The notes beneath the pieces are model-generated. The model saw only the letters and a program-made list of their open reading frames with translations. It had not been told where the DNA came from and searched no databases. The translations under genes and the position numbers were made by a program. Shown here in pieces: positions 2,536 through 20,248 of a DNA stretch of 64,000 nt (its first letter is position 1; every line of letters begins with the position of its first letter). This DNA comes from a virus. The DNA lies in IMG/VR virus record IMGVR_UViG_3300027804_003127, one strand, 5' to 3'.

Positions 2536-2925
2536 ATGAGCGCACCTAACACTTACTTTACAAACCGAATGGCTCCCGCAGATGAAATCAATTCTGTTTT
2601 TGCTGTTGCAGCATCGCAAGGCGAAGACGGCATCGTTTTTTGCACTCCCCAGCAAGTAAAGAACGAGAATCTTTCCAAGATTCTTATTAGGTGGAAGTCT
2701 GCGACTTCCACTATTTTCATTCAGGGTGAGATCAAGGAGATTGCGCACGCCAACACGCCACGAGGCAGGGAGTTGGTGTCTGCGACTCATGCGCGTCCGT
2801 GGAGTGACCTTGCGGATCACCAGAACGGTTCCGCGCTTCGTATCGCGTCGCTGAAAATCGTTGACGCACCTGCTGAGGCTAAAAATCTGCGAAACATCCA
2901 GTCGTGCAAGTACATTACTATTTGA
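2536..2925 (+). CDS. hypothetical protein
   Basis: GGAGG RBS, 129 aa. Confidence 0.7.
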   Translation: MSAPNTYFTNRMAPADEINSVFAVAASQGEDGIVFCTPQQVKNENLSKILIRWKSATSTIFIQGEIKEIAHANTPRGRELVSATHARPWSDLADHQNGSALRIASLKIVDAPAEAKNLRNIQSCKYITI

Positions 2926-2945
2926 GCCACTGGTATTAAAAAATC

Positions 2946-3140
2946 ATGAGCAATAAGAATTCATCAAAAATACCTAAGAAGACTAGAGCGCTGATTGATG
3001 CTTGGATCAAGTTTATCAACGACAACGACATAGACATAGAAACAGACAACTACGGTCAAATCGTCATCTATACTGGGCTGATGTTTGACAAAGACGGTAG
3101 CGTTGTTCCTTTTCAGGATTTAGAAGAAGAGAATAGATAA
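2946..3140 (+). CDS. hypothetical protein
   Basis: 64 aa, abuts next gene. Confidence 0.55.
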   Translation: MSNKNSSKIPKKTRALIDAWIKFINDNDIDIETDNYGQIVIYTGLMFDKDGSVVPFQDLEEENR

Positions 3141-4105
3141 TGGCAAAGACACCATCCCGACTTCTCAATGACATTCGCAGCGATGACCCTAATGTTCGTT
3201 ACGCTGCCGCATCTAATCCTAACGCCACTCCTGAAGTCCTCATGATTGCGATCAAGGATGAGGATGATGAAGTTCGTCGTACTGCCGCATGCAATCCTAA
3301 CGTCACTACTGAAATCCTTAATGTTGCCCTTAAGGATCAGGATTCTGAGGTTCGCTGGAACGCCGCACGGCATCCCAAAGCAACTCCCGAAATCCTTAAT
3401 GTTGCCCTTAAGGATCAGGATTCTGAGGTTCGTGGCGCTGCCGCGCTTAATCCTCACGCCACTCCTGAATTCCTTATGATTGCCATCAAGCACAAGGATG
3501 CGGGTGTTCGCTGCTATGCCGCAGAGAGTCCTAATGCCACTCTTGAAGTCCTTAAGATTGCGATCAAGGACAAGGATGCGGATGTTCGCAGCGGAGCCGC
3601 AAGCCACTCCAAAGCCACTCCCGAAATCCTTAAGATTGCGATCAAGGACAAGGATGCGGGTGTTCGTTTCGCCGCCGCAAAGCATCCCAACGCCACTCTT
3701 GAAATCATTAAGATTGCGATCAAGGACAAGGATGAGGATGTTCGTTGCTCTGTTGTGCGCAATTACAACGTCACTCCCGAAATCCTGATGATTGCCATCA
3801 AGCACAAGGATGTGGATGTTCGCTGCTTTGCCGCAGACAATCCCAACGCCACTCCTGAAATCCTTATGATTGCCATCAAGCACAAGGATGCGGGTGTTCG
3901 TTTCGCCGCCGCAAAGCATCCCAACGCCACTCTTGAAATCATTAAGATTGCGATCAAGGACAAGGACGAGGACGTTCGCTGGAGTGCCGCACGCAATCCC
4001 AACGCCACTCCTGAGATCCTTGATATTGCCATCAAGGACAAGGATGCGGATGTTCGTAAAGCTGTAGAATACAGGCTTAAGACAGCACAGAAGAAGGCAG
4101 GCTAA
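3140..4105 (+). CDS. HEAT/LRV-like repeat protein (~10 x 30 aa)
   Basis: repeat DxDVRxxAAxxPNATPEILxIAIK. Confidence 0.85.
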   Translation: MAKTPSRLLNDIRSDDPNVRYAAASNPNATPEVLMIAIKDEDDEVRRTAACNPNVTTEILNVALKDQDSEVRWNAARHPKATPEILNVALKDQDSEVRGAAALNPHATPEFLMIAIKHKDAGVRCYAAESPNATLEVLKIAIKDKDADVRSGAASHSKATPEILKIAIKDKDAGVRFAAAKHPNATLEIIKIAIKDKDEDVRCSVVRNYNVTPEILMIAIKHKDVDVRCFAADNPNATPEILMIAIKHKDAGVRFAAAKHPNATLEIIKIAIKDKDEDVRWSAARNPNATPEILDIAIKDKDADVRKAVEYRLKTAQKKAG

Positions 4106-4675: not shown

Positions 4676-5266
4676 ATGCAGGAATGGAGCACTGAAGTCA
4701 TGAGCAAGAAGCACAGGCATCTGAATGTTTTGTTAGACGAGATCAAGAGCAGTTACGGCATAGACTTGTGGGTAGCCGCTGCCGATCACCACAAAGCACC
4801 CGTTGATTTTTTGATCCTTGCTGCTAGTCACTACGACTCCGCAGTAAGGGAGGCTGCTGTTTTTAATTACGGCATGAGCGAAAAGGCACTTCTGCGCCTT
4901 CTCGACCACAAGAGAGTCGATGTGCGCGCAGCGGCGTGCAGTCATCAAAACGCCACCGAAGCAGTGATCGCAAAGGGGATCAGAGACTCCAGTTATGTTG
5001 TCCGAAAGAGTGCCGCTGGAAGCGGGTATGTCTCAACCAATGAAGTCCTCCTTACCGCACTGAAAGACAAAAAGTTCGAAGTAAGGCAAGCAGCAATTGA
5101 CAACGATGACTTCTGCGGAGACGCCCTTCCCTTGTCGAAGGAAGAATGGCTGAATCTCCTGAAGCAAGGACACTTCGACTACAGGATCGCGAAGATTCCA
5201 CTGCGAGTGCGTAGGACTCCCGAGTACAAGGCGATACGTCTTCTCAGCAAGATGGCGAAAGAGTAA
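4676..5266 (+). CDS. divergent HEAT-repeat protein
   Basis: VRxAA repeats. Confidence 0.7.
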   Translation: MQEWSTEVMSKKHRHLNVLLDEIKSSYGIDLWVAAADHHKAPVDFLILAASHYDSAVREAAVFNYGMSEKALLRLLDHKRVDVRAAACSHQNATEAVIAKGIRDSSYVVRKSAAGSGYVSTNEVLLTALKDKKFEVRQAAIDNDDFCGDALPLSKEEWLNLLKQGHFDYRIAKIPLRVRRTPEYKAIRLLSKMAKE

Positions 5267-17167: not shown

Positions 17168-17386
17168 ATGGCACGGATGCTATTTGCTCAAGTAAGACAG
17201 TCCACGCAGACTATTTGCAACGGCTTGTTTTGGGACGGCATCAAGGGAGTTATAGTTCATGCTACTGAGCGTGAAGGAAAAACTCTTTGCGGTAAAAAAG
17301 TAAAAGATGCTTCATACGGATGGTATGACTGCATCGAACACTCTGAAGTCACTTGCCCTGAGTGTAAATCAAAAATATCCCCGTAA
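17168..17386 (+). CDS. small Cys-containing protein
   Basis: H...TLCG...VTCPEC. Confidence 0.55.
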   Translation: MARMLFAQVRQSTQTICNGLFWDGIKGVIVHATEREGKTLCGKKVKDASYGWYDCIEHSEVTCPECKSKISP

Positions 17387-17451
17387 CTCAGTTGGATAGT
17401 CGAGATATAAACATATGTCGCTGTAACTCAGTTGGATAGAGTAACTGCCTT

Positions 17452-18044
17452 TAAGTAATAGGAGCCTTCGTGTGGAATATTGAGAAGGTCATCAAAAAAG
17501 GAGATTATTTATACGCTAAAGTAAGCAATCATCCAAAAGCCACTAAAAATGGCTATGTGTTGATGCACAGAATAGTTGTAGAAAATAATCTTCAAAGACT
17601 TCTCAATGCAGATGAAGTTGTACATCATAGAGATGGCAACAAGAAAAACAACAAGATAGAAAATCTTGAAGTTAAAAACTTTGCAGATCATGCTAGACTT
17701 CATGGGCAAGAACAGTTAGCAGTAATGGTAAGTTTGAAATGTCCTTCTTGCAAGAATGCGTTTACAAGAAGAAAAACTCAAACACACCTTTCAAAAAAAG
17801 GTACATGGACTGCTTGCTCTCCTTCTTGCCGTGGAAAGTTTAGTAGGCTTATGCAACTTCATGGAAGAACACACGAAGTGGATCTGGCTATTTCGGAGAA
17901 CATCCTAAATATTTATTTAGGACAACTCCGAGCAAACCGTGATGACGGGATGCGTAGAGACTATACGCCAGACGCCTGAAATGGCGAAGAAATAGTCCAG
18001 ACTACAACAGGTTTTACCTGGCTAGAGTAATCTAGAGTAGTACG
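17452..18044 (+). mobile_element. group I intron in tRNA-Arg
   Basis: U before the 5' site, terminal G, GAGACTA...GAAGAAATAGTCC (R/S) core. Confidence 0.85.
17470..17979 (+). CDS. intron-encoded HNH homing endonuclease
   Basis: HRIVVE...VHHRDGNKKNNKIENL. Confidence 0.9.
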   Translation: MWNIEKVIKKGDYLYAKVSNHPKATKNGYVLMHRIVVENNLQRLLNADEVVHHRDGNKKNNKIENLEVKNFADHARLHGQEQLAVMVSLKCPSCKNAFTRRKTQTHLSKKGTWTACSPSCRGKFSRLMQLHGRTHEVDLAISENILNIYLGQLRANRDDGMRRDYTPDA

Positions 18045-18095
18045 CTAAGCAGTAAGTCGGTGGTTCGAGTCCACCCAGCGACGCTTTAAAGGAGA

Positions 18096-18732: not shown

Positions 18733-19072
18733 GGGGCTGAAAGGATTAGACTGGACGGATACTGATTGCGACTGCACGCCGAGTTTAGTGGGAACTTGTA
18801 AAACTCACTAAAACAAAAACGCCAACTCTTTTAGAATGGCTGCTTGAAAAAGCAAAGTAAGATAAGACGCATCGGTAGTCTTACTTTTAAAACAGATGCA
18901 AAACACCGCACTTTACTACCTCTCTCCAAAGGCGGTGTAGGAAATATTATAGATGAGAGGTCTGTGATGCACTCTAGTGCGATGACTGCATCACGCGGAG
19001 GGATCGCACTAAAGCGTGTAGAAGGTCCGACAGAGAAGTTTCAGCACAGGGGTTCGATTCCCCTCGGCTCCA
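18733..19072 (+). ncRNA. ssrA: tmRNA, tag ANSFRMAA (18821-18847)
   Basis: GGGGCTGA..GGATT.GAC 5' end; GGTTCGATTCCCCTCGGCTCCA 3' end; tag ends AA-stop. Confidence 0.9.
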
Positions 19073-19216
19073 TTCCCGCTCTTGCAGCAATGCAAGGGCG
19101 GGTTTTCTTTTTTTATCTTGCATTTTAGGCAATTGCCTATTTTTAATGAGTATGCTTAGCAGTTTCATGTGATTCTTTCCCGATCCTCTTTGCTACCGCA
19201 TATTGATCTCATACAA

Positions 19217-19251
19217 GGGACTTTAGCTCAGCGGTCTAGAGCTGGCGACTC
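19217..19251 (+). repeat. duplicate 5' half of tRNA(CAU)
   Basis: identical to 19298-19332. Confidence 0.9.
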
Positions 19252-19334
19252 TCTCGTTCTTTGACAATCAAATAGGTAAACATTTCCCATTTTAGTTGGG
19301 ACTTTAGCTCAGCGGTCTAGAGCTGGCGACTCAT

Positions 19335-20106
19335 CTGAACCCTTAATGAAGGTTCAAATGAGAAAGTTCGATAATAGTATTGTACTTTCTCAAGGAGTTT
19401 CATTATGGGTAGACAAAAGTCAGTAAGAGATTTGAATGGCTATAGGGTCATCTATTTGCCAGATCATCCAAAGGCAATGAAAACAGAAAACTGGTACGGC
19501 TATGTATATGAACACATAGCCGTAGCAGAAGATTGCTTAGGAAGAATGCTGCAAGCAAATGAGATTGTCCATCACTTAGACGGTGATCGGACAAATAACA
19601 GATCCTGCAATCTTCTTGTTATCACAAGAGGAGAACATTCAAAATTGGAAAACTGGCTTGCGTGTGGTGCGCCGTCAATGAAAGTTGACGGATTGAATCG
19701 GATGAAATCAGGGAAACCTAAGTGGAAAAAAGCAGAGTATTGCAATATCTGCAACAAGACTCTTCAGAGTAAACAAAAGAACTGCTGTTCAAAAGAATGC
19801 AGCGATTTATTTTGTCGAAAAGTAACGCGCCCTTCAAAGGAAGAGTTACTTGAAGATTTGAGTTCAAAGTCGGTATTATCCATAGGCAAAAAATACGGTG
19901 TTAGTGACAATGCTGTTCGCAAATGGATGAAGCGATACGAGATCCATAAGGCAATCCTGAGCCAAGTCACCGATACATCGGTGAAAGGTGCAGAGACTAC
20001 TGGAGAGGTTTAGTCCTCTTAATAACCAGATTAGCGTCCGACACCTAAGGTCGTAAGACTAAGGTGATGATATAGTCCAAGGAGTAACGAAAGTTACACA
20101 AACTTG
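19335..20106 (+). mobile_element. group I intron in tRNA(CAU)
   Basis: AAATCAGGGAAACC (P), GCAATCCTGAGCCAA (Q), GCAGAGACTA (R), GATATAGTCC (S), terminal G. Confidence 0.85.
19405..20013 (+). CDS. intron-encoded HNH homing endonuclease
   Basis: YEHIAVAE...VHHLDGDRTNN; Zn-finger and HTH at C-terminus. Confidence 0.9.
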   Translation: MGRQKSVRDLNGYRVIYLPDHPKAMKTENWYGYVYEHIAVAEDCLGRMLQANEIVHHLDGDRTNNRSCNLLVITRGEHSKLENWLACGAPSMKVDGLNRMKSGKPKWKKAEYCNICNKTLQSKQKNCCSKECSDLFCRKVTRPSKEELLEDLSSKSVLSIGKKYGVSDNAVRKWMKRYEIHKAILSQVTDTSVKGAETTGEV

Positions 20107-20183
20107 AATCGCTCGGTCACAGGTTCAAATCCTGTAAGTCCCATTAGGAAAATGTTTGCTTGTTTGATTGTAAAGACGAGAGT

Positions 20184-20218
20184 TCGCTCGGTCACAGGTT
20201 CAAATCCTGTAAGTCCCA
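20184..20218 (+). repeat. duplicate 3' half of tRNA(CAU)
   Basis: identical to 20109-20143. Confidence 0.9.
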
Positions 20219-20248
20219 TTGTTTTTCAACTTATATAAGGAAATGCTC

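Follow-up and report, generated by a model that had tools for sequence, protein, structure and literature searches.

How does a tRNA gene come to lie inside two halves of a copy of itself, and what, if anything, does the arrangement do? The question is raised by a locus at positions 19217-20218 of a 64,000-nucleotide (64-kb) stretch of DNA from a large freshwater phage (IMG/VR record IMGVR_UViG_3300027804_003127; the whole stretch is called the window here), in which an intron-bearing tRNA(CAU) gene, the inner tRNA, is flanked on each side by a linker and then by half of a second tRNA, the outer copy. An initial annotation, made from the letters of the stretch, described this nesting and suggested that it might be a processing scaffold, a decoy against anticodon nucleases or an aminoacylatable mimic. 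The explanation that we hold to be probable has two layers: a functional cassette, in which a boxA motif and a long helix wrap the inner tRNA, and outer halves that are the eroding remnant of a second tRNA. The helix and boxA would form an antitermination and leader-trailer processing cassette in the style of ribosomal RNA (rRNA) operons, built around one phage tRNA.

The outer halves are, as first described, exact copies of parts of the inner gene: 19217-19251 is identical to 19298-19332 (35 nucleotides (nt), 100%), and 20109-20145 is identical to 20184-20220 (37 nt, 100%). The 5′ half holds the 5′ strand of the acceptor stem, the D arm, the 5′ strand of the anticodon stem and C32-C34; the 3′ half holds the 3′ strand of the anticodon stem, the variable loop, the T arm, the 3′ strand of the acceptor stem and the discriminator. 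The outer copies stop at C34 and resume at position 39, and positions 35-38 (the loop bases AUAA) are gone. Read as one gene, the two halves have no anticodon loop, which the initial annotation had also seen, and their stem continues straight into the helix formed by the linkers (Table 1).

Table 1. Features of the nested tRNA locus, in window coordinates
Feature	Position	Strand	Content or basis
Outer 5′ half	19217..19251	+	copy of tRNA positions 1-34
Linker 1, leader strand of the leader-trailer helix	19252..19297	+	duplex folds; covariation in 10 sequences
rRNA-operon-type boxA motif, TTCTTTGACAATCAAATAGG	19257..19276	+	sole match in the window
Inner tRNA(CAU) 5′ exon, positions 1-36	19298..19334	+	ARAGORN with introns allowed; cloverleaf fold of the spliced sequence; RNA contig starts
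Group I intron, 772 nt, after U36	19335..20106	+	Rfam RF00028; ARAGORN
HNH homing-endonuclease open reading frame (ORF), 202 aa, inside the intron	19405..20013	+	ORF list; PF13392 in homologues
Inner tRNA(CAU) 3′ exon, positions 37-73	20107..20143	+	fold; ARAGORN
Linker 2, trailer strand of the leader-trailer helix	20144..20183	+	duplex folds; covariation
Outer 3′ half, positions 39-73	20184..20218	+	exact 37-nt repeat

The inner gene has the features of a tRNA. With introns allowed, ARAGORN reports one tRNA with a 772-nt intron at position 36, a 7-nt anticodon loop and both D and T arms, and the joined exons give a 74-nt cloverleaf with the anticodon loop CUCAUAA. The intron scores 83.6 bits against RF00028 (gathering threshold 50) and covers the full model (1-253); at its borders, ...CTCAT/CTGAAC... 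and ...CTTG/AATCGCT, the 5′ exon ends in U and the intron ends in G. CCA is encoded neither in the inner tRNA nor in the outer copy. The anticodon arm, GGCGA-CUCAUAA-UCGCU, presumably resembles that of E. coli tRNA-Ile2. PF13392 (HNH_3) is present in 139 homologues of the intron ORF, and wherever the loci of such homologues were inspected (~15 lineages) they lie within a tRNA(CAU) intron; among INPHARED phage GenBank records the intron core was matched only distantly. Default-mode ARAGORN and Rfam return nothing at the locus except the intron. Both the outer halves and, on account of the intron, the inner gene escape tRNA finders, which leaves loci of this kind under-annotated in large phages.

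The layout itself is real. It is present in at least three independent assemblies, is identical in L210 (ENA assembly, 28-kb contig) and L211 (JGI, 37-kb contig), and its 5′ side is present in L001 (IMG/VR). In an independent DNA run (X9), contigs bridge the outer 5′ half, linker 1 and the inner 5′ half, and likewise the inner 3′ half, linker 2 and the outer 3′ half, and the unitigs of both repeats have twice the depth of the unique flanks (14 versus ~7). The stretch was found in 20 runs from 12 studies, mainly freshwater, and a divergent relative has the same layout with halves that are not identical. An assembly artefact from collapsed or duplicated repeats could claim only contigs L212-L214, from the window's own strain, in which exactly the 75-nt unit of linker 2 plus outer 3′ half is absent; L212 (locus at 2839-3001) retains the outer 5′ half and linker 1, and the loss could be either a direct-repeat deletion in the population or an assembly collapse. 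Misassembly, a possibility that the initial annotation had raised, is rejected on the features tested, and we regard its probability as negligible.

What holds the two sides of this layout together is the pairing of the linkers. Described at first as complementary over about 33 base pairs (bp), the linkers (46 and 40 nt) pair over ~35 bp, with linker 1 paired from ~19250 to 19288. The linker-only duplex has a predicted energy of -45.2 kcal/mol; linkers plus outer anticodon stem reach -55.5 kcal/mol, versus -20.9 +/- 3.7 kcal/mol for shuffles. The minimum-energy fold of the locus with the intron removed is a nested double cloverleaf, in agreement with the earlier proposal that the outer halves are able to fold into a tRNA body around the inner tRNA.

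Relatives were gathered by way of the HNH protein, a UvdE gene nearby, DNA patterns, and contigs in which an HNH homologue is encoded. Seven lineages have the helix (the window, L002, L009/L147/L202, L203, L200, L206/L216 and L207), with duplex energies of -37 to -56 kcal/mol versus -13 to -26 for shuffles, and its core measures 19-35 bp per lineage by hand pairing and duplex folds, above the 17 bp that mark a leader-trailer cassette. The distal part of the helix differs entirely from lineage to lineage: it reads GGTAAACATTTCC / GGAAAATGTTTGCT in the window, GGCAACAATG / CATTGTTGCC in L009, GCAAGCATTCT / AGAGTGCTTGC in L203 and GGCAGAGGTCTTGCT / AGCAAGATCTTTGCC in L200. In an alignment of 10 sequences, each consisting of leader, GAAA and trailer, there are 23 consensus pairs, 13 of which have changes on both sides, and 205 of 230 cells are paired versus 165 +/- 4 (maximum 178) in 1000 partner shuffles. 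G-U pairs outnumber A-C mismatches on the + strand (13 versus 5), a count that gives modest backing to the + strand; strand asymmetry judged by duplex energy gave a mixed result among lineages. These patterns support the idea, put forward in the initial annotation, that the linker complementarity is under selection; the annotation had also said that loss of complementarity in relatives would count against it, and complementarity is kept in all seven lineages. Duplex folds gave no helix in more distant phages (L007/L209) whose CAU tRNA is interrupted by an intron of this family, and by eye there is none in L219 and L221, which have terminator hairpins upstream of the tRNA. A different pairing is conceivable in the L009-type lineage, which lacks outer halves: L009 4483-4500 (ACTTCTTTG, just before and in boxA) is complementary to the ribosome-binding region of the next gene at 4868-4885 (CAAAGGAGT), and L147 and L202 share this complementarity, which is a possible alternative pairing.

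The second component of the cassette is boxA. What had been called a boxA-like motif in the linker turns out to be a 20-mer, TTCTTTGACAAYCRAATAGG, that is identical to the boxA of rRNA-operon (rrn) spacers. It occurs once in the window, with 0.01 occurrences expected by chance, and was found in 19 viral, 92 metagenome and 65 GTDB stretches. In six of the stretches (L121, L188, L160, L127, L133 and L130, checked with Rfam) it lies between a spacer tRNA and the 5′ end of 23S rRNA, and in named genomes the order is tRNA-Ala, a few bases, the 20-mer, ~40 nt and then 23S; the phage thus has the exact 20-mer in common with rrn spacers upstream of 23S. Within it, GTTCTTTGACA has one mismatch to the gamma-proteobacterial boxA consensus GYTCTTTAANA (PMC5725501). 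The core TCTTTGA(C/A)AA is unchanged throughout the relatives, even in L200 where it is unpaired, and is part of the helix in most lineages. In rRNA operons, boxA nucleates an antitermination complex of Nus factors, and the leader-trailer helix, with which the RNase III site overlaps, is indispensable (PMC10250234); such helices are found in all phyla (PMC11404451). The same 20-mer also follows GC hairpins in many unrelated viral contigs (L090-L106), and in L099 (~2266-2285) it stands between two tRNAs of a 12-tRNA cluster. The use of rrn-type boxA appears to be widespread among phages.

Because the complementarity is selected and the boxA resemblance is genuine, a role of the helix in processing or transcription is plausible, and this part of the functional proposal in the initial annotation stands. 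We envisage a tRNA(CAU) with a mobile, HNH-encoding group I intron, flanked by an rRNA-operon-style cassette: the leader carries boxA and, after it, a strand that would pair over 20-35 bp with the trailer just 3′ of the tRNA. By analogy with rrn, boxA would bind host NusB/S10 and other Nus factors, and RNA polymerase would thereby resist Rho and terminators over ~850 nt of RNA that is structured and for the most part untranslated. The leader, held by its tether, would pair with the trailer once the latter emerges, and the long helix, again by analogy, would be an RNase III-type processing site that frees the pre-tRNA; RNase P and 3′ maturation would come next, and the intron would splice itself out.

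The locus is transcribed. Contigs from three metatranscriptomes, each from a different study, begin at 19298, 19303 and 19320, and because they run into the intron they represent unspliced precursor; uneven cover argues against DNA carry-over. In these metatranscriptomes no RNA contig covers 19094-19281, a span that a DNA run does cover, and linker 1 and the outer 5′ half are likewise without an RNA contig. This hints, if weakly, that the leader on the 5′ side, outer half included, is cut off where the mature inner tRNA begins and is then lost. On the other side of the locus, contigs of two metatranscriptome runs span the inner 3′ exon, linker 2 and the outer 3′ half, and the depth of linker 2 plus outer 3′ half is ~6, versus 4-6 for the downstream gene. 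Neither spliced tRNA nor a joint between the outer halves is seen in the metatranscriptome contigs, which omit small RNAs. Run X18 holds one RNA contig that joins 19424 to 19649 and skips 224 nt of the HNH ORF, with a short side of 28 nt and single-contig support.

The region 18733-19116, ahead of the cassette, comprises a transfer-messenger RNA (tmRNA) gene with the tag ANSFRMAA and, after it, a strong intrinsic terminator (19075-19102 plus a T run); transcription of the tRNA cassette therefore requires either read-through or a separate promoter. The segment 19150-19216 is conserved with L009; it may hold the cassette promoter, with the GGGAC remnant of the L009 type close to the start site. 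A sigma-70 promoter scan of the + strand gave none upstream of or inside linker 1. A -35-like TTGACA lies inside boxA, and a transcription start inside the leader was considered and dropped because this TTGACA has no usable -10.

If the cassette is functional, what are the outer halves? Most likely they are the remnants of a second tRNA(CAU) gene that the cassette split. In L002-L004, whose HNH protein is 93% identical, the junctions are the same and the outer tRNA is different: in L002 the outer acceptor stem is GGGAGAT/ATCTCCC and the T stem GTGGG/CCCAC, and the inner stems are GGGACTT/AAGTCCC and ACAGG/CCTGT. Because the L002 outer copy differs from the inner one, we take the outer copy to be by origin a second tRNA species ('type 2'). 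Identity between outer and inner copies is thus lineage-specific, which argues for gene conversion rather than design, and the exact identity in the window would be explained if the inner copy overwrote both halves by gene conversion.

Examination of the other relatives shows outer pieces at every stage of loss. The outer halves are full in two helix-bearing lineages, and elsewhere they are truncated, decayed, one-sided or absent. L200 has a 5′ piece cut to 19 nt and a 3′ piece cut to 31 nt, an acceptor stem GGGCGG/CCGCCC and one T-stem mismatch; L206 keeps both pieces, the 5′ one with a broken D stem, 5 of 7 acceptor pairs and 22/33 identity to L002; and its close relative L216 keeps the 3′ piece and has lost the 5′ piece. 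In L009, L147 and L202, which share the window's upstream flank, all that remains of the outer copy is GGGAC or GGAAC ahead of boxA, with no piece behind the trailer, and L203 and L207 have no outer pieces. The two outer halves are therefore not jointly conserved and co-varying in relatives; the graded series has the look of an eroding remnant. In L207, which is AT-rich, the region 3296-3430, beyond the tRNA(CAU) wrapped by boxA and helix, has another CAU tRNA (long variable arm; 89 nt) and, immediately behind it, an orphan tRNA 3′ half that starts from position 37 (AATTTCTTGGTC...).

We suggest that the cassette landed in the anticodon loop of a type-2 tRNA(CAU), with loss of positions 35-38, most likely through faulty repair of a break made by a tRNA-targeting homing endonuclease. 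The remnant would then decay at lineage-specific rates, and in the lineage of the window it would only add the anticodon stem to the helix and let the acceptor stem close. Duplication and replacement driven by an endonuclease in phage tRNA regions are documented for SegB (PMC2330249, PMC13096335). In L199 (1-900) the same intron and HNH ORF (89% identical) sit at the same locus in an intact type-2 tRNA(CAU) without the trailer helix. The anticodon stem of this tRNA is type 1-like and its T arm type 2-like, a mix that fits homing co-conversion or recombination between nested copies.

A second scar lies close by. At 17375-18085 the window has a tRNA-Arg(UCU) that carries another group I intron and HNH ORF (17470-17979), where L002 and L009 have an intronless tRNA-Arg(UCU) directly after the upstream ORF. 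In the window the first 25 nt of the resident tRNA-Arg remain (17375-17399), followed by 15 nt and then by the complete intron-bearing tRNA-Arg(UCU), the acceptor stem of which differs from that of the resident; the whole gene has been replaced by a foreign allele. With this scar, acquisition of an intron-bearing tRNA has left a partial resident copy at least twice here.

Several observations weigh against the view that the outer halves are simply an eroding remnant. Between L002 and L206 the outer 3′ piece is identical at 28/33 positions and the 5′ piece at 22/33, with the inner exons at 27/39 and 28/37, and the outer T stem stays paired through two-sided changes (GTGGG/CCCAC, GTCGG/CCGGC, ATCGG/CCGGT); it is intact in L002, L206 and L216, the last of which has no 5′ piece. 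L206 has gained a 6-bp pairing, GACCAA/TTGGTC, that extends the helix into the remnant. An intact type-2 CAU tRNA, a possible donor for conversion, is not present in an 84-kb L002-type contig (~21% of the genome), nor is any other CAU tRNA. The origin could lie in one illegitimate insertion, in repeated events or in later recombination, and the absence of the leader from the RNA is only a weak hint because assembled contigs lose small RNAs. Elsewhere, the direction of gene conversion is not readable from the mosaic pattern on the 5′ side, where the window halves were compared with the inner and outer copies of L002, and GTDB genomes yielded no further nested example. The better retention of the outer 3′ piece may mean that its hairpin has been reused, that intact paralogues have converted it, or that it serves as a homology arm by which the cassette spreads.

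The first and last of these lead to alternatives in which the outer sequence is put to work. We give a small chance to a composite selfish element that copies the cassette into intact tRNA(CAU) genes of rivals, whose own tRNA would give way to a nested copy, to an outer 3′ half with an RNA function of its own, or to both. If homology arms or a functional 3′ piece proved true, tRNA cassettes would have a novel means of spreading or of influencing the transcripts next to them.

In the first of these alternatives, homing would carry the nested layout along: HNH would cut the intact tRNA(CAU) of a co-infecting phage, the half-tRNA remnants would act as homology arms, and repair would copy the boxA-tRNA-intron cassette into that gene. 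The layout would spread in this way, and the recipient's distal tRNA sequence would become the new outer halves. Such a process would account for the different flanks of the nested module in the window and L002, and for junction-adjacent sequence that is common while acceptor and T arm are lineage-specific; both module types occur in one sample (3300044616: L001, L004), CAU tRNAs of many different kinds harbour members of the HNH family, and co-conversion driven by HNH or GIY-YIG enzymes in phage tRNA regions is established (PMC2330249, PMC13096335). However, the arms would be only ~35 nt long and 65-90% identical to possible targets, and the junctions of L200 and L206 differ, which fits erosion equally well. 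The idea is a proposal, and we think it unlikely.

It is about as doubtful, in our judgement, that the outer 3′ piece alone is in use, with a T-arm hairpin at the 5′ end of the downstream message that stabilizes or processes it and a 5′ piece that is junk. The hairpin would remain on that message after the helix is cut. The asymmetric conservation (28/33 versus 22/33) and the compensated changes in the T stem, seen also in L216, favour such a use, and the RNA contigs over linker 2 and the outer 3′ half, with depth like that of the downstream gene (~6 versus 4-6), and the orphan 3′ half downstream in L207 agree with it. Yet the piece is absent from the L009, L202 and L203 types and from variants L212-L214, its spacing to the next start codon varies, and its T loop is still tRNA-like, which a mere hairpin would not need.

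Nor do we expect that the outer halves together are a selected tRNA-like RNA, an acceptor and T-arm top closed by the long helix, which might be a scaffold for processing (entry of RNase P/Z, exact removal of the cassette) or persist as a stable split tRNA mimic after the RNase III cut. Minimum-energy folds of the window, L002 and L200 do close an outer acceptor stem of 6-7 bp and the T arm, the outer acceptor strands are complementary in these lineages although they differ in sequence (GGGACTT/AAGTCCC, GGGAGAT/ATCTCCC and GGGCGG/CCGCCC), and the outer 3′ piece is well conserved. But most helix-bearing lineages (L009, L202, L203, L207, L216, L206) have lost the 5′ half or have it in decayed form, it has no RNA contig cover, and the acceptor differences could just as well stem from resident tRNAs that were not the same, or from recombination with intact ones, as in L199. 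This is the part of the original functional proposal that found no support. Its more specific forms, a decoy or an aminoacylatable mimic, are unsupported because the outer copy has no anticodon loop, no CCA and no conservation.

Two further candidates were rejected. A transposon-like element, such as a miniature inverted-repeat transposable element, acting at the DNA level with ~36-bp terminal inverted repeats and the tRNA as cargo, would explain why an insertion that breaks up a tRNA gene has imperfect inverted repeats at its two ends, but is very improbable given the single copy in 64 kb, the lack of a transposase, four bases deleted at the target and none duplicated, one arm that is a conserved boxA identical to that of rRNA spacers, and a distal repeat that covaries with a G-U bias on the + strand. 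An archaeal-type split tRNA, or one with a bulge-helix-bulge (BHB) intron, was rejected because the junction has no BHB and is a 2x1 internal loop followed by continuous helix.

The reading that we prefer, a working boxA-and-helix cassette inside the remnant of another tRNA, has two implications. A phage would be borrowing the logic of the host rRNA operon, boxA antitermination plus a processing stem, for a single tRNA gene, so that this logic would not be confined to rRNA; a literature search found no published description of a boxA and leader-trailer cassette on phage tRNAs. In addition, the relatives offer a naturally graded set, with full nesting at one end and a scar of five bases at the other, of the effects of tRNA-targeting homing endonucleases on tRNA genes: replacement, nesting, gene conversion and erosion.

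Comparison with known systems places each part of the locus. Bacterial 23S rRNA intervening sequences are removed from helices by RNase III, and the fragments stay functional. The phage locus is similar in that a terminal loop has given way to an extended stem, the excision of which, with no religation, would leave the fragments paired; in contrast to the functional 23S fragments, a tRNA without an anticodon has, to our knowledge, no known function. The cyanobacterial tRNA-fMet group I intron with I-Ssp6803I (cited in PMC3943268) is a bacterial anticodon-loop intron with an endonuclease. In the phage gene, too, an intron of the self-splicing type interrupts the anticodon loop of a CAU tRNA and contains an endonuclease ORF; unlike the bacterial tRNA introns, its endonuclease is of the HNH_3 family, its host is a phage, and the gene is embedded in the remnants of another tRNA.

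In the disrupted tRNAs of archaea and algae (split, permuted or multi-intron; PMC4033280, PMC3978253), halves are also joined, as RNA, through a long helix of flanking sequence. There, a BHB motif, splicing endonuclease and ligase yield a working tRNA, whereas the phage locus has no BHB and no anticodon to restore, and belongs to a bacterial host system (tmRNA, boxA). The resemblance to SegB of T4/T6 (PMC2330249, PMC13096335) lies in a nuclease that cuts tRNA regions and in recombination that duplicates or replaces segments and leaves truncated copies; SegB is free-standing and gives tandem amplification, whereas here the insertion is inside a tRNA gene and the HNH enzyme is its probable agent. 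Finally, the cassette differs from the rrn leader-trailer system in that its helix wraps a single 74-nt tRNA (plus intron) instead of 16S or 23S rRNA, boxA lies within the helix in most lineages, and no boxC was identified. Its likeness to that system extends to a boxA identical to that of rrn spacers, a leader strand directly after boxA that pairs over >17 bp with a trailer just 3′ of the mature RNA, a helix that covaries while boxA stays fixed and, in L203, a hairpin upstream of boxA that resembles boxB.

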